Both the position numbers and the translations under genes were made by a program. Below, in pieces: positions 1 through 18,124 of a DNA stretch of 32,153 nucleotides (position 1 is the stretch's first letter; the number at the start of each line of letters is the position of its first letter). The DNA is from a bacterium (GTDB lineage: Bacteria > Krumholzibacteriota > Krumholzibacteriia > JACNKJ01), in the NCBI GenBank assembly GCA_014382085.1, contig JACNKJ010000218.1, forward strand, positions 1 to 32,153. Direction: 5' to 3'. Under the pieces are notes generated by a model, which saw only the letters and a list, made by a program, of their open reading frames with translations, was not told the origin of the DNA and did not search any database.

Positions 1-744
1 GGAAACATCGCCTAGGCACAGGGCCCAACGACCACCTCCCATGTCAATGGTGTCGTAGTAATCGCCTCCCACTTCCCTGGCGGGATGGCTGGCGCCGGCC
101 ACCAGGTAACGTGGAATCTCAGGTGCAGCTTTAGGCAGAAGACCCAGCTGGATCTTTCTCGCGAAGCGCAGTTCCTCTTGCACTTCGAGCAAAGCCTGCT
201 CCTCTTCGTAAAGGCGCGCGTTCTCGATGACCTGTGCCGACTGTCCGGCGATAATGGTCAGCAGGCGCTGATCGGCCTCGCTGAATTCGGCACCCTTACG
301 CTTGTTGTAGGCAGTGAGTGCTCCCACCAGTTCCGACTTGGCCATGAGGGGCACGCAGATGAGCGAGTTGATGGCCTGCCCGCCCATTTTGCCAAGACGT
401 GGATCTCCCTTGGGATCGTTGCTGAGCAAAGGTGTGCGATGGTTCATGATCCAACCGAGCAGAACTTGATCCAAATGAAACTGCGTAAGCGAAGCCGAGC
501 TGCCCAGTGCTCGCACCAGGGTCTTGGCTTCCGAAGGTGACTCGCGATCGAGTAGTGTGATGGTGGCCTGCTCGGCATCCACGGCCTTCACGGATCGAAG
601 AATGATCTCGTCGATGATTTCCTGTGTGCTGTAGGACGAGCCGATGGCCCGCGCCAAATCATTGAGGGTGGAAAGCTCCTCCACCGCACGCTGCAGACGC
701 AGATTCTCTTCGCGCAGATTCTCGGCTTCGTTCTTCTTGCTCAT
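1..744 (-). CDS. GAF domain + SpoIIE/PP2C-family serine phosphatase (RsbU-like), N-terminal 248 codons; the 3' end lies beyond the window start
   Basis: Absent from the ORF track because it runs off the edge. The reverse complement of 1..744 is open from an ATG (742-744): MSKKNEAENLREENLRLQRAVEELSTLNDLARAIGSS... It has a coiled-coil leader and a GAF-like segment (LICVPLMAKSELVGALTAYNKRKGAEFSEADQRLLTIIAGQSAQVIENARLYEE). The PP2C/SpoIIE domain then begins (ARKIQLGLLP, EVGGDYYD, ALCLGDVS). Plus-strand ORFs 85..540 and 644..916 are antisense shadows. Confidence 0.8.
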   Translation of the reverse strand, partial: MSKKNEAENLREENLRLQRAVEELSTLNDLARAIGSSYSTQEIIDEIILRSVKAVDAEQATITLLDRESPSEAKTLVRALGSSASLTQFHLDQVLLGWIMNHRTPLLSNDPKGDPRLGKMGGQAINSLICVPLMAKSELVGALTAYNKRKGAEFSEADQRLLTIIAGQSAQVIENARLYEEEQALLEVQEELRFARKIQLGLLPKAAPEIPRYLVAGASHPAREVGGDYYDTIDMGGGRWALCLGDVS

Positions 745-760
745 GCCGACTTTCGGGCGC

Positions 761-1093
761 TTATCCGCCAATGATTATGGTGGGCTCGATGCCGTCCCCG
801 GGCTTAACCTTGCGGCTGGTGTCCAAACAGAAAATAACGTAATCCTGTGCAAGACCATGAGTTACACTCTGAGCGACACTCTGCGTGCTAGAGCTACCCT
901 TTTTGATGATGAATGAATCAACGCCGAAGACCTGACTGTCTGGAAACACAACTCGGCAATCGCTGGAAGCCTTTGCGGTCGACCAAGTCACCGAATCACC
1001 GCCCTTGAGATTTGTGAGTGCGGCGGCTTCGACAACACAACACTTCGTGGTCAAGGGATGTGGCTTGATGTTCACCTTATGAGATTTGGGCAC
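761..1093 (-). CDS. Small cytoplasmic protein, paralog B of a tandem pair (no family recognised)
   Basis: ORF track gives 761..1108. The ATG at 1108 has no SD. AGGAGGAG (1098-1105) lies 4 nt upstream of an in-frame GTG (1091-1093), and that start makes the N-terminus collinear with paralog A. It shares FPDSQVFG, QDYVIFCL and the C-terminal PTIIIGG with 1129..1467. No signal peptide. Confidence 0.7.
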   Translation of the reverse strand: MPKSHKVNIKPHPLTTKCCVVEAAALTNLKGGDSVTWSTAKASSDCRVVFPDSQVFGVDSFIIKKGSSSTQSVAQSVTHGLAQDYVIFCLDTSRKVKPGDGIEPTIIIGG

Positions 1094-1128
1094 CCTACTC
1101 CTCCTCATTCAATTCGCGTAAAGAACCG

Positions 1129-1467
1129 CTAGCCACCAATGATTATGGTCGGAGAGATTCCGTCGTCGCTGCTCACCTTCTTGCCTGTCATCAGACAGAA
1201 GATTACATAGTCTTGGAACAAACCGGGCTCAAGCCCAGTGGCCACGGTTTTCGTGACGTAAGAACCCAATTCAACAATGAAGGACTCTTCGCCAAAAACC
1301 TGACTGTCGGGAAAGGTTACCTTGAAATTGCAGTCAACGGTATCGGAAACCGACCAGGTAACCTCATCTCCACCTTCTAGCCCATCTAATGGGGCCGTAT
1401 CGATCGAGCAACATTCTCCCGTTTTCGGGTTTTGGCGGATATTCACGGTAATTGGTCCAATAGACAT
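1129..1467 (-). CDS. Small cytoplasmic protein, paralog A of a tandem pair (no family recognised)
   Basis: 112 aa, ATG preceded by GGGAGGAAAGCAA. About half of the positions are identical to paralog B by eye. It has four conserved Cys (CC, DC, FCL), no His, and ends in PTIIIGG. Confidence 0.75.
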   Translation of the reverse strand: MSIGPITVNIRQNPKTGECCSIDTAPLDGLEGGDEVTWSVSDTVDCNFKVTFPDSQVFGEESFIVELGSYVTKTVATGLEPGLFQDYVIFCLMTGKKVSSDDGISPTIIIGG

Positions 1468-1500
1468 TTGCTTTCCTCCCGGATTTTCACCAACGAGGGC

Positions 1501-4173
1501 CTATTCACCTTCCCCCCTCAGTGAGTTCAAATATTGAACCCATCTCTCATCATCCCTCAATTCACCTAAAAGCGATTCGTTTTCGATCTTGGATCGCGGA
1601 TAGCCGGCCTCCACGCACTTCTTGAGCCATGATAAGGCATCATCGCGGTAGCCCATTTTCTCGTAGGTATGGCCAATTTGAAACATTACTTCGGCATTGC
1701 TGGAGTCGAGTCGCGCTAATTCCTCGAGTAGTTCGAGCGCGTTTTCGTCCTGGTCGAGAATGTGATAATAGCTGGCCAAACGTGACAAGAGAGCCGGTTC
1801 TCTCGGGGTAACAGTCCGTTGATCCTCACAAAGCTCAACAGCTCTGCGGATGGATATGACTCCTTGCTCAGAGGTTTCCTCGATGCGAAATTGCGCCGCC
1901 GCAAGGTTGCCCCAGAGACGATAGTCGTGACTGTGCAAAGCCAAAGCTCCGTTATAGTACTGTATCGCTTTTTCGTAGTCTTCATTCATGTAGTGGTAGG
2001 TGCCCAAGTTTGACAGCGCATCGTAGCTGGGCTTGATTTCGATGGATCGATTGAGCAATTCCGCAGCTTCTTCTCCGCGGCGCAGGTAGAGATAGACACC
2101 GGCCAGATCCGTGTAGCCACGGAAGTAATTCTGCGGGGTTAGTTCCTGCACCTGCTGAAACTCCGCGATGGCTTCTTCGAAGCGGAATTGATCCACATAG
2201 AACAGGCCCAGCTTCTGATGCCCCACCCAGTCATCGGGTCGAATCGCGATGGCCTGCTTCAAAATGGAATCGGCCTTTTCCGCATCGCCTCGCTTCGCAT
2301 AGCTATCGCCCAACTCACGCAATGCGCGGATATTGGAAGGATCTTCGGCCAAGGCCTGATCGAGCAGGGTCAAAGCATGGTCGCACTCTTCGATTTCACG
2401 GAAGATCACGGCCAGTGATATGCGTGCGTCCTGAAGTTCATCATCCAGAACGAGAGATCTCTCGCAATGAGTCACCGCTTTGGGAATCCACTCGTCCTGG
2501 CGGCTCCAGAGATAGCGTTGCCAGTAGGCTTCACCAAGTCCCAATTCGGCGAGGGCGTAATTGGGATCTTTCTCGATGGCCTGAACGAAGAACTCGATGG
2601 CCGTGTCCACCGCATCCAGTTTGGCGCGTCGCTGCAGGTAGTCGAGATCCTGCATGAAGCCAAGACCCTTGAGGTAGTACTCCTGCGCCAAGCTCACTTG
2701 AGTGAGGCCCGCTTCCAGCGCCAGCAGTTCCTCGGGACTGAGTTCAACTCGCAGCATTTCAATCAAAGCACCCAGGACGTCGGCCTGCAACACGGAAGCC
2801 TTGCTCACCGAATCTTCCAGCACGGCGGAATTCAAAGTGCGGTGACTGTCGGGGTCGGTGAGATTCAGCGTAAGGGTGATATCTCCATTGTCCCGCGCCA
2901 CGCTTCCCACCACGGCCAGGTTCACGCCGAACACCTGCCGCGCTTCCATGGGACTTGTGATCTCGCTTTTGCGAATGTCCGCCGCAGGCACCACCCAAAA
3001 TGCGTCGCGGAGTCCTTCGAGCTGAGTGAGTTTACTGCTCAAATACTCGTGCAGGCCGTCACCCAAGGCCTGGTTTTCGGGATCACCGCCGATGTTGGCG
3101 AAGGGCAGAATCGCAAGGTACTTGCGATCGGGAATGCCCTCGCCGCCACCTCGCAACCAGGAACTGCCGGGACCATCCAATGCCACCCAGGCCAGGATCA
3201 GGGTGAAGAAGGCGGCGGGCATCCATCGCTTCCAGGGTCGCCGTCTCGCGTCGGCAGGTAGCTTTGCGCCTCCGCCCACTGTGGCCAAATCGGCGCGCAA
3301 TTTATCCACGCTTTGATAGCGAAGTAGAGGATCTTTCTGCAGGCATCGCCTAAGAATGCCCGTGACCCCCGCGTCAAAGGCGCTGGCATCCCCCTGAAGG
3401 CCACGGGGTTCCATGTGACAGATGGCGTACATGACGCCGGGTTCGTGATCGCCCTGAAAGGCCTTCTGCCCCGTGAGCATTTCATAGAGCAGTGCGCCCA
3501 AGGACCAAACGTCGCTGCGACTGTCCACCGCTTCTCCGCGGGCCTGCTCGGGCGACATGTAGGCCGCCGTACCCACGGCCGCTCCAAGCTGTGTCAATTC
3601 CGGCGAGCCGCTTGTTTTGGCCAGTCCGAAGTCGGTGATAATGGCCTTGTTCGCGGGAGTGATCATGATGTTGCCGGGCTTGATGTCTCGATGAACCACA
3701 TTCTTGCCGTGGGCCTCACCCAAACCCTCGGCGATCTGTAAGGCGTAGCTCAAGGCCGCATTGCGGTCGAGGGGACCGTCCACCAGCAAATCTTTGAGGC
3801 TGCTTCCTTCGAGATAGGCCATGGAGATGTAGGTGTGGCCATCTACTTCATCGATCTCGTGTACGGTGCATATATTGGGATGGCTCAATGAAGCAGCCGC
3901 ACGGGCTTCGTTGAGAAAGCGAACGCGATCTTCGTCGTCGCTGAGGAGATGGCCGGACAGGAACTTCAAGGCTACTTCGCGCTGAAGCTTGGTGTCCTCG
4001 GCCCTATAGACGATACCCATGCCCCCTTCGCCTAGCAGCGAGAGGATTTGATAGTGGGCGACCGTCTTACCGATGAGATCCTGAGTCAATGGATGGAATC
4101 CTCTCCGGATCGCGGCGGGGATAAGCGAAATAGGTCCGAAATTATGGCTCACGGAGTCTAGCCGAGGGACCAT
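1501..4173 (-). CDS. Hanks-type Ser/Thr protein kinase with one TM helix, an extracytoplasmic domain and C-terminal TPR repeats
   Basis: Kinase motifs: GEGGMGIVYRA (G-loop), VALKFL (Lys), HRDIKPGNIMI (catalytic loop), DFGLAK, AYMSPEQ. TM segment WMPAAFFTLILAWVAL. A YLAILPFANIGGDPENQALGDGL domain is followed by multiple TPR-like repeats (AIEKDPNYALAELGLGEAYW, ALAEDPSNIRALRELGDSY, and others). Confidence 0.92.
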   Translation of the reverse strand: MVPRLDSVSHNFGPISLIPAAIRRGFHPLTQDLIGKTVAHYQILSLLGEGGMGIVYRAEDTKLQREVALKFLSGHLLSDDEDRVRFLNEARAAASLSHPNICTVHEIDEVDGHTYISMAYLEGSSLKDLLVDGPLDRNAALSYALQIAEGLGEAHGKNVVHRDIKPGNIMITPANKAIITDFGLAKTSGSPELTQLGAAVGTAAYMSPEQARGEAVDSRSDVWSLGALLYEMLTGQKAFQGDHEPGVMYAICHMEPRGLQGDASAFDAGVTGILRRCLQKDPLLRYQSVDKLRADLATVGGGAKLPADARRRPWKRWMPAAFFTLILAWVALDGPGSSWLRGGGEGIPDRKYLAILPFANIGGDPENQALGDGLHEYLSSKLTQLEGLRDAFWVVPAADIRKSEITSPMEARQVFGVNLAVVGSVARDNGDITLTLNLTDPDSHRTLNSAVLEDSVSKASVLQADVLGALIEMLRVELSPEELLALEAGLTQVSLAQEYYLKGLGFMQDLDYLQRRAKLDAVDTAIEFFVQAIEKDPNYALAELGLGEAYWQRYLWSRQDEWIPKAVTHCERSLVLDDELQDARISLAVIFREIEECDHALTLLDQALAEDPSNIRALRELGDSYAKRGDAEKADSILKQAIAIRPDDWVGHQKLGLFYVDQFRFEEAIAEFQQVQELTPQNYFRGYTDLAGVYLYLRRGEEAAELLNRSIEIKPSYDALSNLGTYHYMNEDYEKAIQYYNGALALHSHDYRLWGNLAAAQFRIEETSEQGVISIRRAVELCEDQRTVTPREPALLSRLASYYHILDQDENALELLEELARLDSSNAEVMFQIGHTYEKMGYRDDALSWLKKCVEAGYPRSKIENESLLGELRDDERWVQYLNSLRGEGE

Positions 4174-4244
4174 CGGGGCGCAATGCTCCTTTATAGCACT
4201 GCCCCTAGGGTTTATATTGGATCTCCACCCGAAATGAGGTCTTC

Positions 4245-5414
4245 ATGCCCCGCCCTCACGAGCTGCGCGATCATCCATTTCAGCAAACCATCTATCATCG
4301 CCTCACCGAAGCGGTGGCATCGGGGCGCTCCCCCGTGAAAGACTTCCTGGCCTTGCACTTGGGCGACACGCTACTGGACTTGCCGGCTGAAATGAATTCG
4401 CCGCTTGAAGAAGAAAACTGGGACGCACGATGGTCGCGATATGGAGATCCTCAAGGTGAGATCGAACTGCGCCGGCGTTTGGTGGAGAAGCTTCAAATTG
4501 TGAATGGAATTCCGGTGTCGGGACCCGAAGAACTACAGCTTTCCTTCGGCGCCACCGGCGGTCTGCATTTGATTATGCGCCGCCTGCTGGATCCCGGCGA
4601 TGAAATTCTAACCCTTTCGCCTTATTGGGCCATTCTTCGCGTTGTGGCAAAGACTGCCGAGCGCAAACTGGTGGAAGTGCCCTTCTTCGATCGTGTGAAT
4701 GCCGTCTCCGATGAAGAGCTGCCCGGACTTATCGAGCCCTACCTCAGCGAAAAGACCCGTGCCATCTATTTCAACACGCCCAACAATCCCAGCGGAGTGG
4801 CCCTTCGCCCGGGACAGATAAAGGCCTTGGCGAAATTCGCCGCAGGAAATGATCTTTGGATCATCGCGGATGAGGCCTACGAAGATTTCCTTTGGGCTGA
4901 TTTCAAACATGTTTGCATCGCATCCTTGCCCGAGGCTTTCGAGCGCAGCGTGAGCGTGTTCAGCTATTCCAAGAGCTATGCCGCGGCGGGCTTGCGTCTG
5001 GGCTACGTGGCTGCTCCAGCAGGAACCATCGCGGCTTTGAATCCCGGTCAGGTGGGCGTCGGATATGAAGTGAATCGTCCGGCTCAGGCGGCGGGCTTAC
5101 GGGGGCTTGCAAGACGGGAAGCGATCATTCCCCGATTGCGGGCTCAGTACCTGCAAGGCCTTCAGGCCGCGGAGGAGAATTTGGATTTACCCTATCTCGC
5201 GCCCCAAGGCTCCTACTTCCTATTCTTGGATTTACGCGATCGATGGGCGGGGCTCGGCGAAGAGGAAAAGCTTGAGCGCATGCTCGAAGCGGGCGTGAGC
5301 CTCAGCCCCGGTGAGCACTTCGGCCACGACTACGACGGATGGGCCCGCTTCTGTTACACTTGCGAGGAGCCGGATCGCATCGCCGAAGCTGCGCGAAGAG
5401 TGAGTCGGCTATAG
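4245..5414 (+). CDS. PLP-dependent aminotransferase, class I/II (aspartate/aromatic aminotransferase-like)
   Basis: Motifs NTPNNPSGV, IADEAYEDF and SYSKSYAAAGLRLGY (PLP lysine context). GAGG lies 6 nt upstream of the ATG. Confidence 0.85.
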   Translation: MPRPHELRDHPFQQTIYHRLTEAVASGRSPVKDFLALHLGDTLLDLPAEMNSPLEEENWDARWSRYGDPQGEIELRRRLVEKLQIVNGIPVSGPEELQLSFGATGGLHLIMRRLLDPGDEILTLSPYWAILRVVAKTAERKLVEVPFFDRVNAVSDEELPGLIEPYLSEKTRAIYFNTPNNPSGVALRPGQIKALAKFAAGNDLWIIADEAYEDFLWADFKHVCIASLPEAFERSVSVFSYSKSYAAAGLRLGYVAAPAGTIAALNPGQVGVGYEVNRPAQAAGLRGLARREAIIPRLRAQYLQGLQAAEENLDLPYLAPQGSYFLFLDLRDRWAGLGEEEKLERMLEAGVSLSPGEHFGHDYDGWARFCYTCEEPDRIAEAARRVSRL

Positions 5415-5437
5415 TTCTCATCCCTGAAGAAATACTG

Positions 5438-6397
5438 TTACTTCAAGAGCACCAAACGCTCTCGAGTTTGGCGGCCACCCGATTCGAGCGAAGCGAAATA
5501 GAGTCCCGCAGCAAGCGCATTACCGGCTTGGTCGCGGCCGTTCCAATCCACGGTGAATTCTCCCACCTGACCCTGCCCTTCAAACAAGGTTGCAACATGT
5601 CTTCCGGCGATGTCGTGGATGCGCAGGCTCACATGGCCGGCCACCTCGACTTTCGCACGCAACTGCGTATTGGGATTGAAGGGATTGGGATAGGCCCTTA
5701 ACTCAAATTTGCTGGCAGGCACCGCTGCGTCAGTGGGCAGAGTGGAAAGACAGTAGGCCATGTCTTGGGGAATCATGGTGAAGTTATCGATCGAGGTCCA
5801 TCGGGTGTATCCCCAATTCGCGGCGTCCAACCATGCGGGACAAGCGCCATAACTAACTTCCCATGGAGTGGCCACGATTCCCGTGAAGGGCTCCTGCGTT
5901 CCCCAAGAGATGAGAGCCGTGGCACCAATGGACATAAACTCCCCTACCTCAAGTGGAGGATCCAGGTGAACGCGCAGCTCATAGACCGTGCTACTGGTGT
6001 TATCGAATATGAGATCCTTGTCGAGATCGACCCAGGGCACCTCAACGGAATGGTAGGGAACCAGCTCCGGTGGACAGGCTTCATGGTAAAAGTTCAAACG
6101 AATGCCGTCGGGTTCGGTCCAGTAGGGTCCGCCACCGTAGTACCACTCTCCCAACCATAAGGTCACCGTGCTAATCAGCTCTCCGGTGAACTCCACAGGG
6201 ATATCATCGGCGATTTCCCCGTTTTGGCCCGACGACATCTGATAGATCATGCTGTAGTCGGGATCCTGGCAATAAATCACGTCACGCGCTTTGCCCGAGC
6301 CATCGAATTCGTTTGGTGGAGAAAAGAGAGGTATGGAATCAGCGAGCAGTGGGATCAGCAATAAAACGAGGACAAGACAAGACCTGGCAATAGACAT
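5438..6397 (-). CDS. Secreted protein with a T9SS-type (FlgD Ig-like / Por) C-terminal sorting domain; N-terminal domain unknown
   Basis: ORF track start 6409 is TTG. The ATG at 6395-6397 has GAGGTG 5 nt upstream and gives signal peptide MSIARSCLVLVLLLIPLLADS. The C-terminal ~85 aa read LRAYPNPFNPNTQLRAKVEVAGHVSLRIHDIAGRHVATLFEG...WNGRDQAGNALAAGLYFASLESGGRQTRERLVLLK, which is typical of this sorting tail. Confidence 0.8.
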   Translation of the reverse strand: MSIARSCLVLVLLLIPLLADSIPLFSPPNEFDGSGKARDVIYCQDPDYSMIYQMSSGQNGEIADDIPVEFTGELISTVTLWLGEWYYGGGPYWTEPDGIRLNFYHEACPPELVPYHSVEVPWVDLDKDLIFDNTSSTVYELRVHLDPPLEVGEFMSIGATALISWGTQEPFTGIVATPWEVSYGACPAWLDAANWGYTRWTSIDNFTMIPQDMAYCLSTLPTDAAVPASKFELRAYPNPFNPNTQLRAKVEVAGHVSLRIHDIAGRHVATLFEGQGQVGEFTVDWNGRDQAGNALAAGLYFASLESGGRQTRERLVLLK

Positions 6398-6459
6398 GGC
6401 GCACCTCAAGGTCGAATTGGGTGGATAACTCGAGGCGCAAGTTTATCATAATTATTGGC

Positions 6460-7239
6460 CTAGGGGAACCAGGTCCAGAGCCGGGAACCAAGTAGCAGTA
6501 CGGCTGCGGCCGCAGGACCCAAGAAGGGGCCATAGGGCAAGGTGGATTGCCCCGAACCCTTGTGCTTGAAAATAATGTAGAGCCCGAAAGCCGTTCCGAT
6601 CAAGGAACCTAAAAGAAGACTGGTGAGCATACCCTGCCAGCCCAACCAGGCACCCAACATGGCTGCAAGCTTGATGTCCCCCCCGCCCATGCCGTCCACT
6701 CCACGAATTATTTTATAGATCGTGAAGACCAGCAGAAGCCAACCGGCACCGATCACGATCCCTAGACCGGAGTCGACCCAACTAATCCCTAACGCGGGAG
6801 CGATGGCGAATCCGACGATGATCCCCGGAATGGTGATCATGTCGGGAATGATCCCGTGATCCAGATCAATGAAGACTACCGCCATCATGGCGAGCAGAAA
6901 GGTAGAGCGCAGTACGGCCGTGGCGAAATGGTCGGACATCAAGGCGGCGGTTAGTAGACTGATAGCGCCGAGCAATTCGACGAGAGGATAGCGCATGCTG
7001 ATGGGCGTTTTGCAGTGCCTGCAACGTCCGCGTAACAGAAGGTAACTGAAAACCGGAATGTTGTCTCTCGGCAGAATGGGTTCTTTGCATTCAGGGCAAC
7101 GGGATCGCGGCCGCGAGAGGGATATGCCCAAGGGAAACCGATGGATAACCACATTCATGAAACTGCCCAGGCACAGTCCCAGCACAAGAATCAGGAGCGG
7201 CATGAATGGTAAAGCGTTCATCCAAGTTGGCAGTAACAT
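6460..7239 (-). CDS. pilD: Type IV prepilin peptidase / N-methyltransferase (A24 family)
   Basis: N-terminal CxxC...CxxC (CPECKEPI, CRHCKTPI), catalytic Asp contexts FIDLDHGIIPD and GGGDIKLAAMLGAWLG, and a polytopic membrane profile. ORF track start 7248 is GTG. The ATG at 7237-7239 has AAGGAG 8 nt upstream. Confidence 0.92.
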   Translation of the reverse strand: MLLPTWMNALPFMPLLILVLGLCLGSFMNVVIHRFPLGISLSRPRSRCPECKEPILPRDNIPVFSYLLLRGRCRHCKTPISMRYPLVELLGAISLLTAALMSDHFATAVLRSTFLLAMMAVVFIDLDHGIIPDMITIPGIIVGFAIAPALGISWVDSGLGIVIGAGWLLLVFTIYKIIRGVDGMGGGDIKLAAMLGAWLGWQGMLTSLLLGSLIGTAFGLYIIFKHKGSGQSTLPYGPFLGPAAAAVLLLGSRLWTWFP

Positions 7240-7278
7240 TTCAGGCACTCCTTAGAATCCGTTCCAGGGCCTATAAGC

Positions 7279-8010
7279 TTAACGATGTGAAAAGACCAAG
7301 TAGCCGAAAGCGCTCAGCAGAATGGCCAGCAAAATCGCCGTCCAAAGCGGCCCGTAGGTAATCATGATGGGTTCCATAAAGCCCTGCACCTGACCCCAAA
7401 CATCACTTCCCAATCCCGAGATGTTTCGTAGGACTTCTCCAAAACTTTGGGGCGGATTGAGCTTGAATCCATTTCCGCTGTTTTCCAGACCCATAGCCTT
7501 GGCAAGGACGAGAAGGAAAACGATGACCAATAATCCTGTGAACATGGGTGCACTTTTAGCGATCACAAGGCGCTTGGTTTGCCCACTATTGGGGGCCTTG
7601 GCACCGGGAAGGCTAGCTACGAGCTTTCTCGGAGATTCGCTCGCCCTCTTCAGCTCCATTCCCTTAAGTCGATTCAGAAAGATGAAGTGATCATGCCAGA
7701 TTTTGTCGAACTCATCGACATTCCAGGGCTCATCTTGGTCTTCGTGAGGAAGAGTGTGATGATCCTGGATCATCGACATGACGGCCTCCACCTTAAGGCA
7801 GATATCATCGTTTTGATCCAGGGGAAGGATGGAATTCAACCACTCGAGATCCACGGCCAACTTGCCCTTGAGTTTTAGAAATTCCTTCTCAGCCAAGGCG
7901 GTAAGAGTGTTCTTGCCTCCATAGCTAACGGCCAGCACGCGGAACTCAACCCAATGATTGAGAAGGCTCTTCATGCGCAATCGTGAACCGAAGGAGTTTA
8001 GAACTCGCAT
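7279..8010 (-). CDS. Hypothetical membrane protein (soluble N-terminal ~150 aa, two C-terminal TM helices) embedded in the T4P operon
   Basis: ATG with AGGAGA 6 nt upstream. TM candidates are MFTGLLVIVFLLVLAKAMG and GPLWTAILLAILLSAFGYLVF. No motif I recognise. It is 17 nt downstream of pilT and 39 nt upstream of pilD. Confidence 0.6.
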   Translation of the reverse strand: MRVLNSFGSRLRMKSLLNHWVEFRVLAVSYGGKNTLTALAEKEFLKLKGKLAVDLEWLNSILPLDQNDDICLKVEAVMSMIQDHHTLPHEDQDEPWNVDEFDKIWHDHFIFLNRLKGMELKRASESPRKLVASLPGAKAPNSGQTKRLVIAKSAPMFTGLLVIVFLLVLAKAMGLENSGNGFKLNPPQSFGEVLRNISGLGSDVWGQVQGFMEPIMITYGPLWTAILLAILLSAFGYLVFSHR

Positions 8011-8027
8011 GTCGGATCTCCTGATCT

Positions 8028-9092
8028 CTAGCCCAGAACCAGCTGGGCTTTCATGGGATCCTGAAGACGAGGTACGGCGTCGGAAATATTCACCACACCC
8101 TCCATCATCAGGTTGAGTAGCGAGTCATCCAGAAGGCACATGCCTTCCTTCGACGCACCCGCAATGGCGTTGTTGATCTGATGAACCTTATTCTCGCGAA
8201 TCAGATTTGCGATGGGATTGTTCACGAGCAGTATTTCACGCGCGGCAACGCGTCCATCCGTATCGCAACGAGGCAGCAGAACCTGTGAGATGACGCAGCG
8301 AAGTGTTAGCGCAAGACGAGTTCGCACTTCGGGCTGATCCTCCAAGGGAAAAACGTCGATAATTCGATTGAGGGTTTTCGCAGCCGACTGAGTGGCAAGG
8401 GTGCTTATGACAACATTGCCCGTTTCGGCTGCCGTCAGGGCGATCTCGATGGTTTCCCTGTCACGCATTTCCCCCACGAAGATTACGTGGGGCATCTGAC
8501 GTAGAGCGCCTTTAAGTCCCACCAGATAGTCTTTCGTGTCGATGCCGATTTCACGCTGGTCGACAACGCAAACCTTCGAGTCCAACCTGAACTCGATGGG
8601 GTCTTCGATGGTAACAATGTGCTTGGCTACATGATGTTCATTGTTCAGGTACTCAAGGAAAGCCGCCACGGTCGATGACTTTCCCGCACCCGTTGCGCCG
8701 GTCACGAGAATCAAGCCGTTGGGGATCGACGCGAGCTTCTTGATGAAATGCTCGGACAAGCCCAGATCCGTGTAGTGAGGAATCACTAAAGGGACAACAC
8801 GCAGGACGGCACCCACGGAGCCCTTCTGCTTGAGGGCGTTGACTCGAAAATTCGCAACGCCTTCAAGTTCATAGGAGCTGTCGAGCTCCCAATTTTCCTC
8901 GAACTCGCGAATGCCGCGGGCGGTGAGAAGCTGATAGGTCAGATCCTCGGTCTCCTGAGAATTCAGCACATGGCCGTCTTCCTTTGGCTGGAGCTCGCCG
9001 AATATATGGTAGCTAACAGGAGCTCCGGCGGATATCAGGATGTCCGAGGCTTCACGCCTCACAGCCTCCTTGAGAACCTCAACGATATTCAT
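8028..9092 (-). CDS. pilT: PilT-family (retraction-type) hexameric ATPase, atypical His box
   Basis: Walker A GATGAGKSS, Asp box IVTIEDPIEF, Walker B VIFVGEMRD, and a PilT-signature-like IANLIRENK (canonical AIRNLIRE). The His box reads GNVVISTLAT instead of GH..F.TLHT. The ATG abuts the pilQ stop. Confidence 0.85.
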   Translation of the reverse strand: MNIVEVLKEAVRREASDILISAGAPVSYHIFGELQPKEDGHVLNSQETEDLTYQLLTARGIREFEENWELDSSYELEGVANFRVNALKQKGSVGAVLRVVPLVIPHYTDLGLSEHFIKKLASIPNGLILVTGATGAGKSSTVAAFLEYLNNEHHVAKHIVTIEDPIEFRLDSKVCVVDQREIGIDTKDYLVGLKGALRQMPHVIFVGEMRDRETIEIALTAAETGNVVISTLATQSAAKTLNRIIDVFPLEDQPEVRTRLALTLRCVISQVLLPRCDTDGRVAAREILLVNNPIANLIRENKVHQINNAIAGASKEGMCLLDDSLLNLMMEGVVNISDAVPRLQDPMKAQLVLG

Positions 9093-10418
9093 CTATTCTC
9101 CACTCTCACTCTCATGTAATACGTCCGAGAGAGCTTGACTTACCGGAACCCTCAATCCTTCATCACCAACGATCCTCGGAGTAACTTCAATCAGCAGATC
9201 CAAGGTAATTTTCTCAGAAGTCGTGTGTGAGAAAAGGCGACCCAGGAAGGGGATCTGACCTAAGAAGGGAACCTTTTTAACCGTGGAGCGCTCTTCCTCG
9301 GACAGGAGTCCACCCAAGAATATCTTCTGCCCGTCGCGAACCCGGACCAGGCTTTTCGCTCGACGGGTAGAGGTCTGGGGAAGATCCTCATCCGGTCCAA
9401 CGAAGCGAAGGATTCTGGAAATCTCAGGTTCTACAAGCGTGGTAATGTGCCCGGAATCTGTTGCGCGAGGTGTGATATTGAGGCGAACACCCACATCGAT
9501 CTTATCCAGAGCGACCGTCTGGAACGCACCCGCAGCAGCAGAGGATTGCAGGGAGCTTATAATTACAGGAACGGTTTCGCCGGCGAAGATCTCTGCAGGA
9601 ACGCCATCGAGTGTAACGATTTTCGCATTGGCAAGCATTTTAGCATCGCCATCGCTGAGCAAAGCGTCGATAGCCACTTCAAGCGTCTCGAACTGACGAA
9701 ATAGTTTTCCTCCATCTTCGATGGGTGTGTAGGCAATATCAGTGGGCATCGCGTCGGGACTGCTGAATCCAGGATTCTCTTCCGTGACAATCGTCGACCA
9801 CTTGGTGAGTTTTTCCCAATCTACACCGAGCTCGACCAATCGATTGGTATTCACTTCGATGAGGCGCGTCTCCAGGTAAATCTGGGTCGGCTTCTTATCC
9901 ACATTCGCGATGATTCTCCCAGCTTCTTCCAATTGAGACTGAGTACCGCGGATGATCACACGGTTATTGGCGACGTCGGCGCTAACGCTTTTTGTCAATA
10001 CCTCGAGAATCGTTTTCATCTCTGCAGCATTGGAGTACTGCAAATCGAAAACCTGAGATATCAAGCCGGTGGGCGCTGCCAATCGACCGGGATCTGCAAC
10101 CAGTATCGAAGAACCTACTCTTTCGAAGCCAAGACCGGCGGCACGAACGACAAGGTTGAATGCCTCGTCAAATGGCGTGTCCTCCAGGTGAATGGAAATC
10201 TTTCGCGACTGAACTTCGGGACTCGTGATGATATTGAGGCCACTTCGGTTCGCCAGGATCTCGAGGATTTCATTAACAGAAGTACTATCCGCACTCAGTG
10301 ACACCACGGTGGGCTGCGGAGCTAAATCCCCAAAGGAGGGAATTGCCGCAAAAAGCATCGCCAAAGCGATAACCATCACCCGCTGGACAATGTGGCAAAT
10401 AGGAATCGGAGCTTTCAT
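9093..10418 (-). CDS. pilQ: Type IV pilus secretin (short, 441 aa)
   Basis: Signal peptide. An N0/STN-like segment (ILEILANRSGLNIITSPEV...ISIHLEDTPFDEAFNLVVRAAGLGF). Secretin domain (AKIVTLDGVPAEIFAGETVPV, GVRLNITPRA, VRVRDGQKIFLGGLL, VKKVPFLGQIPFLGRLF). AGGAGG lies 7 nt upstream of the ATG. Confidence 0.9.
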   Translation of the reverse strand: MKAPIPICHIVQRVMVIALAMLFAAIPSFGDLAPQPTVVSLSADSTSVNEILEILANRSGLNIITSPEVQSRKISIHLEDTPFDEAFNLVVRAAGLGFERVGSSILVADPGRLAAPTGLISQVFDLQYSNAAEMKTILEVLTKSVSADVANNRVIIRGTQSQLEEAGRIIANVDKKPTQIYLETRLIEVNTNRLVELGVDWEKLTKWSTIVTEENPGFSSPDAMPTDIAYTPIEDGGKLFRQFETLEVAIDALLSDGDAKMLANAKIVTLDGVPAEIFAGETVPVIISSLQSSAAAGAFQTVALDKIDVGVRLNITPRATDSGHITTLVEPEISRILRFVGPDEDLPQTSTRRAKSLVRVRDGQKIFLGGLLSEEERSTVKKVPFLGQIPFLGRLFSHTTSEKITLDLLIEVTPRIVGDEGLRVPVSQALSDVLHESESGE

Positions 10419-10437
10419 TCTTGAGCCTCCTAGGGCC

Positions 10438-10950
10438 TTATTTATCGAGTACGAAAGACTTGCTATTTTTCGACACGGTCACGGAATTCAGAGAGATGCT
10501 CTCAATAGTCCAACCAAGGAATTCATCTCCCACATGGAGCCAGCCAGAAACCTTGTCTTTTTTACTAAGTTTTGCAGAAGGGTCGACAGTGTCGTAAAGC
10601 AACGCCCGCAGTGTTGGCGGAATGAGTTTTTTAGGCTTGGGAGCCTTCGGGATGGTAGATTCTGAGCCAGTGTTCTTAGGCTTCGGCTCCACCTTTTTCT
10701 GAGGAGGTTGACCGAAGGGATCGCGTCCAGCGTTAACCGCCAGTTGAAGATAACTCACCTTCTGGTTAATCAGAATCGTGTCGGGCTTCCAACTCGAAGA
10801 ACTCGCTCGCAAGTTCTCTGCCGATGAAGAAGCGATAAAGGTGCCCATGGTAAGGGCTTTGTGCCCGCGAGCGCCGAAGAATGCCGCAATGAGTACCAGG
10901 GCTGCGCAAAGCACCAAGAAAGACCTGTTATCACTGTTACTGATTTTCAT
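10438..10950 (-). CDS. PilP-like periplasmic T4P alignment-complex protein
   Basis: Position between pilO and pilQ. N-terminal TM anchor, a Pro/Lys-rich linker (PPQKKVEPKPKNTGSESTIPKAPKPKK), then a small beta domain (VSGWLHVGDEFLGWTIESISLNSVTV). The ATG overlaps the pilO stop (TAATG). Confidence 0.5.
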   Translation of the reverse strand: MKISNSDNRSFLVLCAALVLIAAFFGARGHKALTMGTFIASSSAENLRASSSSWKPDTILINQKVSYLQLAVNAGRDPFGQPPQKKVEPKPKNTGSESTIPKAPKPKKLIPPTLRALLYDTVDPSAKLSKKDKVSGWLHVGDEFLGWTIESISLNSVTVSKNSKSFVLDK

Positions 10951-11477
10951 TAGAGCTTCTCCAGCGGGTCGTAGATGGAGAGGGTCATCCTGGTTTCCAG
11001 ATTCCGATTATCCAAACCCGTATTGATCTTGATTTCATCTACTGTGACTAGACGAGTTCCGCTTTCGAGTGTCCTAATGAATTGAAGTGTTGGATCGAAG
11101 GGTCCATGCACCCTGAGAAAGAACTTGGTTTGGACAAGGTTCGTGGATTCGATGGCATCAACTGCTCTTAACTCCAATCGAACCAGATTCGTTTCTTCGA
11201 TGAGTTTGCCGAGAAATGCAGTTGGGTCTTCCTTAATGAGGGAAGAGGTTCGAAGTCCGTAGTGTTCGAGGTAGCCAAGTAGGCGGCGATTATCTCGCTC
11301 TGAGCTTTGTACTTGAGCCACTTGTCCAAGAAGCTCCATACGTTTGTTCTCAAGCGAGACCAGGCGTTTACTCTTGGGGGTGACAAGCGCCAAATCAACG
11401 GAAACACCCACCACAATAACGAGGAGGGCAATTGCCATGATCTTGGGAGTGATCAATTTCTTCAGATCATCAATCAC
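10950..11477 (-). CDS. pilO: PilO-like T4P alignment-complex protein
   Basis: N-terminal TM (IMAIALLVIVVGVSVDLAL), a coiled-coil, and a C-terminal ferredoxin-like segment (FFLRVHGPFDPTLQFIRTLESGTRLVTVDEIKI). GTG start overlaps the pilN TGA (GTGA). Confidence 0.7.
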   Translation of the reverse strand: MIDDLKKLITPKIMAIALLVIVVGVSVDLALVTPKSKRLVSLENKRMELLGQVAQVQSSERDNRRLLGYLEHYGLRTSSLIKEDPTAFLGKLIEETNLVRLELRAVDAIESTNLVQTKFFLRVHGPFDPTLQFIRTLESGTRLVTVDEIKINTGLDNRNLETRMTLSIYDPLEKL

Positions 11478-12031
11478 GATCCACCTTCCGAGTCATCGCC
11501 AAGGATTTGGAACCTAGTTCCGGATCCACCTCCAACACTCCCCAATCGGAGGCTGGAGAAATCGTTTGAAAGTCGCGGGTCCATTCGCAACATATCCACG
11601 AACTCTGTGAAAACGCTTATCTGAACGTCTTCATGGCCGGTCTCTCCGATGATCGCTAACTTCTTCTTAGTTTTTCCACGCTCAATAGCACCTTCGAATT
11701 CGACTATCTGAAGATCCTCGGTCAACATCTCTGACAGCATGGCGAGCTTTGGCGCCCAGTCGATTCGCTTTGATCGTATCTCAAGCATTTCTCGGGCGCT
11801 GACCAATTCCTGTTCCAAGGCAGACTGATTTTGAATGCGGTCGGTTTGATGGGAAACGATTTCAGATAGAGAAGCGACTCTGTCGTTAATCAGAAATGCG
11901 CTCATAATGAGCGACCCGATCGCTAACACGACGACCCCTGAAAAGGCGGCCAGGATACCGGTCTTGACAACACGTAAACGCGCTGTGTTTCGACGCTCGT
12001 TGAACTCCGGATACAGATTGATGCTAAACAT
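11474..12031 (-). CDS. pilN: PilN-like T4P alignment-complex protein
   Basis: Canonical PilN N-terminus MFSINLYPEF...RR, followed by TM GILAAFSGVVVLAIGSLIMSAFL and a coiled-coil. ORF track start 12067 adds 12 residues. The internal ATGs at 12040 and 12031 fit the family better. It overlaps the pilM stop (12024-12026). Confidence 0.75.
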   Translation of the reverse strand: MFSINLYPEFNERRNTARLRVVKTGILAAFSGVVVLAIGSLIMSAFLINDRVASLSEIVSHQTDRIQNQSALEQELVSAREMLEIRSKRIDWAPKLAMLSEMLTEDLQIVEFEGAIERGKTKKKLAIIGETGHEDVQISVFTEFVDMLRMDPRLSNDFSSLRLGSVGGGSGTRFQILGDDSEGGS

Positions 12032-14786
12032 GTGCAGCATCTCCCCAGCGGCACAGACCCATGGCATTCACATAACTGGAACCGTATCCGGCTATCTCCT
12101 TGCTTGCAGAATCTGACATTCGCAGCCCTTCAGTTGGGTCCAGTAGATGGACCGGCAACTTGATTCCCTCCTGAAGCTTTTCAGGTAAGCCTTCAAGGAG
12201 TGCCCCGCCACCGGACAGATAGATACCCGAAATGTCTTTCGAGTAGCGCTGACGATAGAAGAAAACTGTTTCCGCCATCTTGAGTTTGAGATTATCAATG
12301 AATCGATCCACTGTCTCTTCACTGGCCTTGGGGTTGGCTGCGCCAAAGCCTAGCTTTCGACTCAAAATTCCCCCCGTGTGACTTGTAATGTGAAGGGAGC
12401 TTTGCTTAAAACCGATATCAACAAGGCCAACGGCTTTGCTGGTATCAAAACCAGCGGGAAGGTTGGCAAAAAGTTGGTTAAGACCTGCAAGTAAGTCCAA
12501 ATCTAGAACTCGGGGCTCCAACCCGATTTTTGTGAGTACCCGCAGAGGGAAGTTCTTCGCATAGGTCGGCACCGCTACCAGAAGCACACGATTTAGACTC
12601 ACGCCATTTTCAACGAGTGCAGATGCCTCTCCGAGGATTTGAGCGGCAAGTACAGGACACTCCATAGACTCGATGTCCAGATGTGTTTTTGCTTCGAAGG
12701 GCAATGCCATCTGAAGATCTTTCTCGGACAAGGGCGCCATCTCAACTTCCCTGATGCTTGCATCTCGTCCACTGACTGATACGATTATCCTGCCCATGTT
12801 CCTTTTGTTCAGATCGTTTCGTTCCAGTATATTATTGAAAGCCTCAACGGCCCGCCGCTCCAGCTCTACTTCATCATTTCTGTTACTTGCGGGAGGTAGG
12901 TCTTCTTTGGCACAGATCATCACCTCTTCGAGGCGATCCTTACCCCTGCCATGCACTAGCTTAATACTGTTTGACCCGATATCGATACCGGTCCGCAGAT
13001 CTGTGGACCTGATCATCGCCCCCCCAAAACTGGGCTTCGCTCCAGAGAGCTTCCCTCTTGTCTTTTCTTCTTCTCTGTCAGACGCGCCTAACAAGGCTTT
13101 CTTCCTTGCGAAAAGCTGTCCAAAAGACTTTCGGCTCTTAGCTTGTTTCTTCTTCGGGGCGCCTTCCATGTTCTGGGAGGACTCAGCCTGCATAAGCTGT
13201 TGTATATCTTTACTTTGCGCCGAGATATCGGCAACCATCTCTTTAAGGACAGGCGACTTCTCTTGGTCATTCGTGTTCGAGGAAAGAGGTATTTTTTCCC
13301 GCTCTGTAGTCAATTCCTCCTGCTTTTCTTGACTAGCCCGACTGAACTCTTTTTTACCGATTGAGACTCTGCTATTGGACTCCTGTCCAGATTCGTCGGG
13401 GTTCTTTGTCAAAGGTTTGCTTAAATGATCATTAACTATCGACCCTGGGGCTTGACTGTTGTCTCTTGACACTTTTTCAATGCCCTTGCTTGCTTTAGAT
13501 TCAAGGGAATCAGACGAAGCCCTTGGCAGAGGTTCATTGGCACTGACATTAAGATTATTAGTACTGCTTGGGGCAGCTGGCGACTTAGCCGCCAAGTGAT
13601 CGGCCTCCGCACTTTCTCTTAGCCCTGGCGCCGAATCATTGCCTTGGTCGTTTGCTATAGTGCCACGCCGTAGGTTCTGATTTTCCTGATTTCTTCGAGC
13701 TTCTAGTTCACGCTCAATTCGCGCTTTTGCCTCAGCTTCAGCCTTAGACTTTTCCTCGGCTTTAGCCTTTGCCTTCGCCTCAGCTTTTGCCTTTGCCTCA
13801 TCTTCAGCCTTGGCCCTTGCTTCTGCCTCCGCTTCAGCCTTAGCCCTCGCCTCCTCCTCTGCCTTAGCTTTAGCCTTAGCTTCTTCTTCAGCCTTGGCCT
13901 TGGCTTCCGCTTCAGCTTTAGCCCTAGCCTCCGCTTCAGCTTTTGCCTTTGCTTCTGCCTCAGCTCTGGCCTCTGCTTCAGCTTTAGCCTTAGCCTCCGC
14001 CTCCGCTCTGGCTATAGCCTCAGCTTCAGCCTTAGCCCTGGCTTCCTCCTCAGCCTTGGCCTTGGCTTCCGCTTCAGCTTTAGCCCTAGCCTCTGCTTCA
14101 GCTTTAGCCCTAGCCTCTGCTTCAGCCTTAGCCCTGGCTCTCGCCTCCTCCTCAGCCTTAGCCTTTGCTTCAGCCCTGGCCCTCGCCTCTTCCACTGCCT
14201 TAGCTTTTGCCTTAGCTTCTTCTTCAGCCTTGGCCTTGGCCTTCGCCTCAGCCTTGGCCTTGGCTTCTGCCTCAGCCTTGGCCTTGGCTTCTGCCTCAGC
14301 TCTGGCCTTGGCTTCTGCCTCAGCTTTGGCCTTGGCCTCAGCTTCAGCTTCAGCTTTAGCCCTAGCCTCAGCCCTGGCCCTCGCCTCTGCCTCATCTCTA
14401 GCTCTAGCCTCGGCTTCAGCTTCAGCTTTAGCCTTTGCTTCTGCCTCAGCCTTGTCCTTGGCCTTGGCTTCTGCCTCAGCTCTGGCCTTTGCCTCCGCCT
14501 CAGCTTTGGCTCTCGCCTCAGCTTCAGCCTTGGCCCTTGCTTCTGCCTCAGCTCTGGCTTTAGCCTCAGCTTCTGCTTTGGCTTTTGCCTCTTCCTCTGC
14601 CTTGGCGTTGGCTTCAGCTTTTACCTTAGCCTGAACTTCAGCCTCAGCCTTAGCTTTTGCCTCTGCTTCAGCCTTGGCTTTCGCCTTAGCATCTGCTTTT
14701 TCTTTTGATTTGATTCGACGTTTTTCGAGGAGGTCGGCGAGGCTGCCAATGTCCAGCCGCTGACTTCGTTCACTGGTCTTTCGCAA
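12024..14786 (-). CDS. pilM: PilM (actin-like ATPase, C-terminal ~322 aa) fused to an N-terminal ~340-aa A/E/K/R repeat and a ~230-aa Ser/Asn/Gln/Lys-rich disordered linker
   Basis: C-terminal domain TGIDIGSNSIKLVHG...VGLVDIGFKQSSLHI...IYLSGGGALLEGL is PilM/FtsA-like, and the gene lies directly upstream of pilN. Residues ~27-366 consist almost only of A, E, K and R. TTG start at 14786 with AAGGAGG 8 nt upstream, and no in-frame stop anywhere in the ORF. Confidence 0.85.
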   Translation of the reverse strand: MRKTSERSQRLDIGSLADLLEKRRIKSKEKADAKAKAKAEAEAKAKAEAEVQAKVKAEANAKAEEEAKAKAEAEAKARAEAEARAKAEAEARAKAEAEAKARAEAEAKAKDKAEAEAKAKAEAEAEARARDEAEARARAEARAKAEAEAEAKAKAEAEAKARAEAEAKAKAEAEAKAKAEAKAKAKAEEEAKAKAKAVEEARARAEAKAKAEEEARARAKAEAEARAKAEAEARAKAEAEAKAKAEEEARAKAEAEAIARAEAEAKAKAEAEARAEAEAKAKAEAEARAKAEAEAKAKAEEEAKAKAKAEEEARAKAEAEAEARAKAEDEAKAKAEAKAKAKAEEKSKAEAEAKARIERELEARRNQENQNLRRGTIANDQGNDSAPGLRESAEADHLAAKSPAAPSSTNNLNVSANEPLPRASSDSLESKASKGIEKVSRDNSQAPGSIVNDHLSKPLTKNPDESGQESNSRVSIGKKEFSRASQEKQEELTTEREKIPLSSNTNDQEKSPVLKEMVADISAQSKDIQQLMQAESSQNMEGAPKKKQAKSRKSFGQLFARKKALLGASDREEEKTRGKLSGAKPSFGGAMIRSTDLRTGIDIGSNSIKLVHGRGKDRLEEVMICAKEDLPPASNRNDEVELERRAVEAFNNILERNDLNKRNMGRIIVSVSGRDASIREVEMAPLSEKDLQMALPFEAKTHLDIESMECPVLAAQILGEASALVENGVSLNRVLLVAVPTYAKNFPLRVLTKIGLEPRVLDLDLLAGLNQLFANLPAGFDTSKAVGLVDIGFKQSSLHITSHTGGILSRKLGFGAANPKASEETVDRFIDNLKLKMAETVFFYRQRYSKDISGIYLSGGGALLEGLPEKLQEGIKLPVHLLDPTEGLRMSDSASKEIAGYGSSYVNAMGLCRWGDAAHV
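13689..14708. repeat. About 1 kb in-frame degenerate tandem repeat (GCN-GAR-GCN-AAR type) encoding the A/E/K/R region of the PilM fusion
   Basis: Visible 6/12-nt periodicity (gcctcagcttcagccttagcc variants). The exact 43-mer cagccttggccttggcttccgcttcagctttagccctagcctc occurs at 13889-13931 and again at 14051-14093, an offset of 162 nt (54 codons). Confidence 0.9.
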
Positions 14787-14912
14787 GCAGCACCCCTCCT
14801 TGGGTCAAGCTGACTACCCATAGCATTGTCTCGCGATTAATCGACCAATGCCTATGTGGGCAATAACAAGGAGAGCTCATCCGTGGCAGCACCTTGTCGC
14901 AATTCATATTCC

Positions 14913-15410
14913 TTAGTTGCGCAGTGCAACTGCACTTTCGATGTCGACCAGACTTCCAGTCTCATCATCAGCCTGAAAACTGTAGCGAACCGTTTTCGGC
15001 GCGACCGGATCCACCGCGAATTGGATACTCTGAAGAGTCAATGCCGTTACGCGGGCTCCGGTACTGTCGGCTAAAGTCATGTTGCCATCGTCCCATTCAA
15101 ATCGGTAGATGACATCACCGTCGATGTCTTGAAGAGCTAAACCATCGCCGGTATTCGTCGGGATCGTTCGATTAGGCATAGTGTAGACCATGAACCCAGA
15201 GGCGGTTCTTGCTCTGCGACTGATCATCAAGGAGAGGTAACTGGCTTCTTGCTGTGCGATCACCTTGTGAGCACCAGTCTTGAAGCTTCGATCCACTCCG
15301 CGGTGAACGGCCCCAGCACCGAGCATGACAACAAGCCCCAGAAACGCGTAGATCATCAATTCGACCAGAGTAAACCCGGCTTGTTGGCGACTAGAACGGA
15401 TAGGTTGCAT
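14913..15410 (-). CDS. Minor (pseudo)pilin with a prepilin-type N-terminal cleavage/methylation motif
   Basis: MQPIRSSRQQAG|FTLVELMIYAFLGLVV (G-1, F+1, E+5). GGGAGGAG lies 7 nt upstream of the ATG. It overlaps the upstream gene by 20 nt. Confidence 0.8.
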   Translation of the reverse strand: MQPIRSSRQQAGFTLVELMIYAFLGLVVMLGAGAVHRGVDRSFKTGAHKVIAQQEASYLSLMISRRARTASGFMVYTMPNRTIPTNTGDGLALQDIDGDVIYRFEWDDGNMTLADSTGARVTALTLQSIQFAVDPVAPKTVRYSFQADDETGSLVDIESAVALRN

Positions 15411-16758: not shown

Positions 16759-16768
16759 CTTCCTCGGA

Positions 16769-17245: not shown

Positions 17246-17263
17246 GGCATGTCTCCTTCAAGT

Positions 17264-17304
17264 GAAAAACGCCGAGGGCTGCCCTATCAGCGACCCCCGG
17301 CGTT
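17264..17304 (-). terminator. Candidate intrinsic terminator/attenuator after pilA
   Basis: Minus-strand RNA AACGCCGGGGG-(15 nt)-CCCUCGGCGUU followed by UUUCAC. It forms 11 bp including one G-U pair, begins 18 nt after the pilA stop, and has 5 consecutive U in total. Confidence 0.5.
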
Positions 17305-17322
17305 CCCAGATCCTAGATCAGG

Positions 17323-17757: not shown

Positions 17758-18053
17758 GTTGCCTCCCGCTGCGCAATGCAGCATTTGGGGTCGGTCCCTC
17801 CCACGGGACCAACTCTGCCCCTTGGGAATCAGCTACCAATCAGACGACTTGGCGCTTAAATGTCACTGCGGCTAGGACAAGAACCATGCCGCCTTGCCGG
17901 GACAGACGATAGACTCACTACTCATTGTTACTGCTTCACTTACGACACTATACATATCCTGGAATGGAGAGGTCTTCAGAGCAGGAAGGAGGAAGCTTCC
18001 GCACCGTATGGAAGGATTTGGATGCGACGGGAAGAGATGGGAAAGGATCTTTC

Positions 18054-18093: not shown

Positions 18094-18124
18094 ATGTATC
18101 ACTCAGATTTTGTGGAAAATGTGC

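Follow-up and report, generated by a model that had tools for sequence, protein, structure and literature searches.

The left end of the 32,153-nucleotide stretch of DNA analysed here (GenBank assembly GCA_014382085.1, contig JACNKJ010000218.1, positions 1 to 32,153, from a bacterium of the Krumholzibacteriota; hereafter the window) carries most of an operon that encodes a membrane Hanks-type Ser/Thr kinase, two small paralogous proteins, A and B, of a seemingly new family, a GAF-PPM phosphatase and, past the window edge, a STAS protein. We hypothesize, with a probability of roughly 0.6, that the kinase and the phosphatase form a phospho-switch on the STAS protein and that the small proteins are partners matched to the kinase. 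The small genes and the adjoining end of the kinase gene belong to a hypervariable, recombining cassette set between conserved flanks.

The operon ends in a STAS gene past the window edge

The first-pass annotation described four co-directional minus-strand genes at this end of the window, and the open reading frame (ORF) coordinates bear this out: the kinase, small A, small B and phosphatase genes are separated by 33, 35 and 16 nucleotides. A scan of these intergenic gaps revealed no promoter-like and no terminator-like site, which is consistent with a single transcript, short of proof. The GTG start of small B is preceded by a AGGAGGAG Shine-Dalgarno sequence 5-6 nucleotides upstream, and public gene calls also give a protein of 110 residues; an alternative ATG at 1108, which would yield 115 residues, sits within AGGAGGAG itself.

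The GAF domain of the phosphatase (residues 40-174, Pfam E 1.7e-15) lies in the window, which holds the first ~55 residues of the PPM domain only, so that Pfam SpoIIE is undetectable there. An identical, full-length phosphatase gene is carried by locus L001, a 330-kb metagenome contig that also records small protein A. This gene (L001 10724-12010) encodes 428 residues with both a GAF and a SpoIIE domain, the architecture that had been proposed from the window. The NCBIfam models spore_II_E, RssB and SiaA-type matched residues 181-425, and the full-length protein contains GDVSGKG, SDGVTD and FDDVT, which we take to be the acidic motifs of PPM-type phosphatases.

The phosphatase stop is overlapped by the start of a gene for a 271-residue flavoprotein resembling ferredoxin-NADP reductase (FNR; L001 12010-12825, plus strand; NAD_binding_1 E 4e-16, ferredoxin-NADP reductase E 9e-35). 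This FNR-like gene, which sits between the phosphatase and STAS genes, hints at a redox link, yet it stands outside the conserved core, being absent in L005, L013, L020 and L023. The last gene of the operon, on the same strand as the phosphatase gene (L001 12850-13206, ~2.1 kb past the window edge), encodes a single-domain STAS protein of 118 residues (PF01740 E 1.5e-11; TIGR00377 anti-sigma-factor antagonist E 3e-12); in L005 and L013 the STAS gene lies directly 3' of the phosphatase gene. Solved SpoIIAA structures matched this protein (E 1e-7 to 4e-6), and the alignment sets its MTSAG opposite their MDSSG. Ser64, which thus lies at the position of the Bacillus subtilis SpoIIAA phospho-serine Ser58, was retained in 6 of 6 distinct orthologs. 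The earlier statement that the locus has no STAS protein was thus an artefact of the window edge: the window covers only the 5' two-thirds of an operon that counts six genes here and four in some relatives, arranged in the order kinase, one or two small genes, GAF-PPM phosphatase, optional FNR-like gene and STAS gene.

A GHKL kinase of the RsbW/SpoIIAB type, which the first-pass annotation had likewise not seen, was found neither in the 20-kb L001 locus nor in the 32-kb window, and no SigB/SigF-type sigma factor was seen in the window or in the ~20 kb of the L001 contig inspected. The sole sigma factor seen is an extracytoplasmic function (ECF) sigma factor with a zf-HC2 anti-sigma factor, ~17 kb off and on the opposite strand. 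An ORF of 138 residues convergent to the STAS gene (L001 13221-13637, minus strand) was considered as a hidden RsbW and rejected, as it is lipoprotein-like, contains CLSCH (a CxxCH motif of the haem-c type) and has no Pfam match. YceI and cytochrome P460 genes come next, and all three are convergent to the operon.

The kinase is a predicted membrane receptor with a TPR array

The kinase proved to be the transmembrane TPR Ser/Thr kinase that had been read from the sequence. Pkinase (PF00069) matched its residues 41-287 at E 3.6e-48, and the glycine loop, catalytic lysine, HRDxKxxN, DFG and APE-type motifs of a Hanks-type kinase are all present (GEGGMG at 48, ALK at 68-70, HRDIKPGN at 161, DFG at 181 and SPE at 207), so that by its motifs it would be a typical active-type enzyme. 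Hydropathy analysis gave one hydrophobic segment only (maximum 1.35 over 19 residues), preceded on its N-terminal side by the basic RRRPWKRW and kept in all orthologs and paralogs. Beyond a region of ~170 residues with no Pfam match (340-515), several TPR families matched residues ~520-880 in an array that runs to the C-terminus. The predicted layout places the catalytic domain in the cytoplasm and the TPR array outside the membrane.

The small proteins form a very rare family with a predicted cupredoxin fold

Small proteins A and B share 56% identity (E 2e-39), which upholds their description as paralogs, and neither matched Pfam or NCBIfam at E<=1, in keeping with the earlier failure to assign them to a family. 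A word-indexed search of 5.8 billion proteins returned 4 clusters, and a full hidden Markov model (HMM) scan of 1.84 billion representatives returned 11 matches at E<=1e-3, one of them spurious (a eukaryotic Ig-repeat protein); the family HMM matched small B at E 6.5e-46. Two further loci in metagenome-assembled genomes (MAGs) were found with a narrower family alignment. The alignment of 14 sequences used for the conserved features and for the structure model shows a GD-x-V-x-W strand, F-P-D, V-F-G and Y-V-I-F-C motifs and a near-invariant C-terminal E-P-T-I-I-I-G-G. C20 is present in >=90% of the members and C91 in all but two, a conserved CC pair has been gained in the first loop, and Ser/Thr is kept in most members at T16 (NPKTGEC) and T107 (EPTIIIGG).

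The AlphaFold2 model of small A built from this alignment is all-beta, with a predicted local distance difference test score (pLDDT) of 89.5 and a predicted template-modelling score (pTM) of 0.82; an earlier model from 5 sequences reached pLDDT 74 and gave no significant fold match. The best Foldseek matches in the PDB were pseudoazurin and amicyanin (E 2.8e-4 to 2e-3, TM ~0.55, 18-21% identity), followed by plastocyanin, laccase and nitrite-reductase domains and FtrB. Nearly all matches have the cupredoxin fold, SO1698 being the sole recurring one not placed there, and a viral structure library gave no match to the model at E<=0.001. Two sequence comparisons provided weak hints in the same direction: the family profile searched against PDB sequences matched plastocyanins only (E ~0.3), and hhalign against three cupredoxin sequences gave 13% probability, placing C91 on plastocyanin Cys84 and F-P-D on F-P-H37. 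The structure search thus left the absence of a described family standing and added a predicted fold, that of a degenerate cupredoxin (E 2.8e-4 at best).

Of the copper ligand set His/Cys/His/Met, C91 is the sole remnant; the first His position is occupied by Asp, Asn or Thr, and most members have no His or Met after C91. Hydropathy revealed no signal peptide and no hydrophobic N-terminus, and a longer N-terminus is ruled out because the 33-35-nucleotide gaps leave no space for one. With neither the ligand set nor export in evidence, the small proteins should not be called cupredoxins in the functional sense. They are best described as cytoplasmic degenerate cupredoxins with a cysteine-rich site, which the topology of the model would put at the former copper centre, and as such they represent, on this model, a new and very rare family that reuses the cupredoxin fold. 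A ubiquitin/ThiS-like C-terminal GG tail was considered and rejected: GD, P, AE and TG also occur at this position, and PTIII forms the last beta-strand of the sandwich in the model.

The kinase is the constant neighbour of the small proteins

Across the relatives, the small genes occur in 1 or 2 copies within a syntenic neighbourhood that comprises a type IV pilus/type II secretion-like cluster, an opposite-strand aminotransferase, the kinase, the small gene(s), the GAF-PPM phosphatase, the optional FNR-like gene and the STAS gene. Synteny among close relatives is weak evidence alone, and the non-syntenic contexts are the informative ones. In L020, a gene for an 874-residue TPR kinase is followed by a 108-residue family member (HMM E 1.6e-20), and a second member, P0013, adjoins a second kinase of 855 residues. 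In L023, an 868-residue TPR kinase is followed, after a 23-nucleotide gap, by P0014 and then by a MutL-family gene (PF13941). In L019, P0011 is separated by 46 nucleotides from the N-terminus of a kinase 59% identical to that of the window. Every context with enough sequence thus has a Hanks kinase of the same TPR architecture next to a family member. No SpoIIE or STAS gene was found within ~8 kb on either side in L020 and L023, so the kinase, not the phosphatase, is the constant partner. The proposed tie of the small proteins to the kinase/phosphatase pair therefore holds for the kinase, which adjoins them in every informative context, and fails for the phosphatase in these two loci. Literature searches found no publication describing this gene set.

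These contexts bear directly on the proposal, made before the STAS gene was seen, that the small paralogs replace a STAS protein as shared phospho-substrates or adaptors between the Hanks kinase and the GAF-PPM phosphatase. The proposal draws on the position of the small genes between both enzymes with gaps of 16-35 nucleotides, on the Ser/Thr conserved at T16 and T107 and on the constant adjacency to the kinase. We nevertheless consider it unlikely, given that a STAS protein with the canonical serine is encoded in the same operon and that the members in L020 and L023 have kinases with no SpoIIE or STAS gene nearby. Docking interactions, moreover, reportedly determine which substrates are recognised by the PPM phosphatases of STAS-family anti-anti-sigma factors (PMC11418112). 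Because the operon supplies a STAS protein, the phosphatase has no need of the small proteins as substrate, and these are best read as kinase-matched partners rather than STAS substitutes.

The kinase C-terminus and the small genes vary together

The small genes evolve far faster than any other gene of the locus. Between the window genome and L018, protein identity was 99% for the PilT-like ATPase, 92% for the aminotransferase, 92% for the phosphatase and 84% for the kinase, compared with 49% for small A and 47% for small B. Within the kinase, identity to L018 was 92-100% to residue ~680 and then fell to 75, 65, 40, 57 and 50% in successive 40-residue bins. When the window genome was compared with L018, L015 and L027 by blastn, similarity was gone between ~9570 and ~10620 of L001, with flanks at 75-90%. 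The same cassette boundaries were observed in two independent close pairs, L008/L018 and L015/L027: DNA identity was ~90-92% to kinase nucleotide ~1900-2000, 36-66% through the cassette and again 84-93% where small B ends and the phosphatase gene begins.

Identity matrices for the cassette and its flanks were incongruent. For the kinase body and the phosphatase, the closest sequence to L018 came from L008 (97% and 96%); for the kinase C-terminus and the first small protein, it came from L027 (72% and 68%). By the Nei-Gojobori method, the comparison of L008 with L018 gave a synonymous divergence (pS) of 0.29-0.39 and a non-synonymous divergence (dN) of 0.01-0.02 in the flanks, compared with a saturated pS of 0.77-0.82 and a dN of 0.42-0.70 in the cassette, whose non-synonymous divergence is 20- to 70-fold that of the flanks. 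The saturated synonymous sites together with the incongruence argue that the alleles are much older than their flanks and have recombined between lineages, and have not merely evolved faster in place. In Mantel tests over eight loci, the divergence of the kinase C-terminus followed that of the first small protein (r=0.92, p=2e-4), and that of the phosphatase did not (r=0.16).

A diversity-generating retroelement was rejected as the source of variation, as no template/variable repeat pair was found in positions 1-6000 and no reverse transcriptase in the locus. An anti-phage defence system was likewise rejected: the PADLOC matches concern the generic kinase domain only (PD-T4-6/mad6), and PADLOC gave no match for the small proteins, the phosphatase, the FNR-like protein or the STAS protein.

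The correlated divergence lends itself to an explanation by linkage only, in which the small proteins evolve fast and serve a thiol/metal or redox function in the cytoplasm that is independent of the kinase, and one recombination tract spans both. Present data do not separate co-variation from linkage, and the conserved C20 and C91, the latter at the copper-cysteine position, and the FNR-like flavoprotein found in the operon in most lineages would suit such a role. We think this quite unlikely, because three more contexts, all non-syntenic, also have a TPR Hanks kinase next to the family member, the FNR-like gene is missing from the four loci named above, and the cassette boundaries recur in two independent genome pairs.

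The same pattern also suggests a signal-receptor cassette, in which the small protein or its product is the cognate ligand of the kinase TPR array and the alleles define specificity groups for strain-specific communication or self-recognition. TPR domains commonly bind peptides or proteins, and here the variable block comprises the sensor end of a receptor and the adjacent small genes between conserved flanks, with incongruent phylogenies, saturated synonymous sites and the r=0.92 correlation. We regard this explanation as improbable: the small proteins have no signal peptide or hydrophobic N-terminus and are folded domains of 110 residues rather than short peptides, and the operon has no processing or export gene. 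Read-through of the kinase stop offers no way around this. The 33-nucleotide gap between the kinase and small A genes (1468-1500) is in frame with the kinase TAG and stop-free, as it is in L008 and, at a length of 30 nucleotides, in L027 and L011. A kinase-small A fusion, which would have removed the topology problem, is not supported and was rejected because the gaps of other relatives are 23, 34, 38 or 44 nucleotides or an overlap, and the in-frame gap is not conserved.

Discussion

We propose that the GAF-PPM phosphatase would strip phosphate from the STAS protein, as RsbU/SpoIIE-type enzymes do, and that the phosphate is probably put there by the membrane Hanks kinase upon a signal at its outer TPR array. 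The kinase is named as the writer because it is the only kinase found in the operon and in the ~20 kb of contig inspected. There is precedent for a receptor Hanks kinase phosphorylating a STAS protein in PknD and Rv0516c of Mycobacterium tuberculosis (PMC1847690). The small proteins may be allele-matched partners of their own kinase, acting as regulator, adaptor or substrate, and the duplication may supply two versions of this partner.

Several considerations weigh against this proposal. The true STAS kinase could be of the RsbW type and encoded elsewhere in the genome. Direct contact is hard to picture, since the end of the kinase that varies is predicted to lie outside the membrane and the small proteins look cytoplasmic; contact between the kinase tip and a small protein needs an unrecognised export route, and otherwise linkage explains the co-variation, which could reflect physical linkage within one recombination tract. 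The pS and dN values come from the simple Nei-Gojobori method applied to very divergent alignments, and the cupredoxin assignment comes from a predicted model with a modest TM (~0.55). The contexts examined are uncultured MAGs and metagenome contigs throughout, and most loci are syntenic over 20 kb, leaving only ~4 independent contexts.

A bolder version of the proposal would pair the outer TPR tip of the kinase with the leaderless cupredoxin-fold proteins as matched receptor and ligand, or lock and key, with several ancient alleles swapped between lineages. The whole would then be a specificity-group or self-recognition system, of a kind with no earlier description, that feeds the STAS switch. 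We offer it as a long shot.

Feature coordinates and neighbouring genes

Table 1. Features of the kinase operon within the window (positions of the 32,153-nucleotide stretch).
Feature	Position	Strand	Remarks
Hanks-type Ser/Thr kinase gene	1501-4173	minus	890 aa; Pfam Pkinase and TPR families
Kinase catalytic domain	3313-4053	minus	Residues 41-287
Probable single transmembrane segment, MPAAFFTLILAWVAL	3166-3222	minus	Kinase residues ~318-336
Small protein A gene	1129-1467	minus	112 aa; GenBank MBC8367284.1 'hypothetical protein'
Small protein B gene	761-1093	minus	110 aa, GTG start; MBC8367283.1
GAF + PPM (SpoIIE/RsbU-type) phosphatase gene	1-744	minus	N-terminal 248 of 428 residues; gene truncated by window edge
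Hypervariable, recombining cassette	~850-2200	minus	Last ~200-230 residues of kinase (C-terminal TPRs), small A, most of small B

The window also contains, at 6460-21254 on the minus strand, a type IV pilus/type II secretion-like cluster whose synteny extends to most relatives; only the opposite-strand aminotransferase gene lies between it and the kinase operon. It encodes a PilB-like ATPase with MshEN, T2SSF, two N_methyl pilins, DUF4900, a PilM fusion, a T2SSM_b-like protein, a secretin, a PilT-like ATPase and a prepilin peptidase. The PilM fusion is an ORF of 920 residues (12024-14786, minus strand) in which ~330 residues of near-perfect (A-E-A-K/R-A-K)n and a low-complexity linker of ~250 residues precede PilM_2 (residues 600-818, E 3e-18). 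The repeats in the DNA, at ~13720-14690, have a period of 24/48 nucleotides and 20-39 copies, and this repeat accounts for the strong GC and AT skew at 13-15 kb.

At 5438-6409 (minus strand) lies a gene for a 323-residue protein with FlgD_ig and a C-terminal type IX secretion system (T9SS) type A sorting domain (Por_Secre_tail E 1.5e-7). This protein is fast-evolving, with 64-85% identity among relatives compared with 90-99% for its neighbours. The ECF sigma factor gene (Sigma70_r2/r4_2), the only sigma factor gene seen in the window, overlaps the start of the zf-HC2 anti-sigma factor gene (together 21581-22724, plus strand), 3' of which are several ORFs with no Pfam match and a gene for a DUF4384 protein.

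Comparison with known systems

The family is confined to few uncultured lineages and all evidence is computational, which limits the scope of what follows. Two points appear of interest: an intracellular cupredoxin fold with no copper site, and the coupling of this family, through an allelic cassette, to the end of a kinase that carries its sensor. The first invites comparison with pseudoazurin, amicyanin and plastocyanin, which the small proteins resemble in predicted fold and with which the GDxVxW strand and the Y-x-x-x-C motif align. The small proteins differ from type-1 cupredoxins in the absence of a signal peptide and of three copper ligands (both His and the Met), in an extra CC in the first loop, in a longer C-terminal loop and in being encoded in a kinase operon.

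The second recalls the agrBDCA and comQXP pherotype loci, in which a hypervariable block covers a receptor sensor and an adjacent small gene, the flanks are conserved and alleles are exchanged. The cassette shares this population-genetic pattern only: the receptor is a Hanks kinase where the pherotype loci have a histidine kinase, the product of the small gene is a folded domain with no leader, and the operon has no processing or export enzyme. If the coupling between the small proteins and the kinase reflects binding, the alleles would provide ready-made cognate and non-cognate pairs for the study of partner specificity in bacterial Ser/Thr kinases.

The closest likeness to the kinase and STAS protein taken together is the PknD/Rv0516c pair, which also joins a Hanks kinase, a receptor whose extracytoplasmic sensor consists of repeats, to a STAS anti-anti-sigma homolog (PMC1847690), a relation that is proposed here. 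The PknD sensor is a beta-propeller, whereas that of the window kinase consists of TPRs, and small partner proteins and a variable cassette, both present here, are not described there. In M. tuberculosis the PknD and Rv0516c genes are reportedly not in one operon with a GAF-PPM gene.

Finally, the operon resembles the RsbU-RsbV-RsbW and SpoIIE-SpoIIAA-SpoIIAB modules in combining a PPM phosphatase with an N-terminal sensor, here GAF, and a single-domain STAS protein whose phospho-serine position is conserved. Phospho-switches of the partner-switching type are normally driven by a dedicated RsbW-type kinase. Unlike those modules, the operon has neither a local GHKL anti-sigma kinase nor a SigB/SigF-type sigma factor; it begins with a membrane Hanks kinase and carries inserted genes, of which one or two encode cupredoxin-fold proteins and another is FNR-like. 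The enzymes and the STAS protein belong to known families, and the Hanks kinase/GAF-PPM/STAS operon is a variant of partner switching with no local RsbW-type kinase or sigma factor. If our proposal is true, the operon would show in compact, natural form how a Hanks kinase can feed into a STAS switch.

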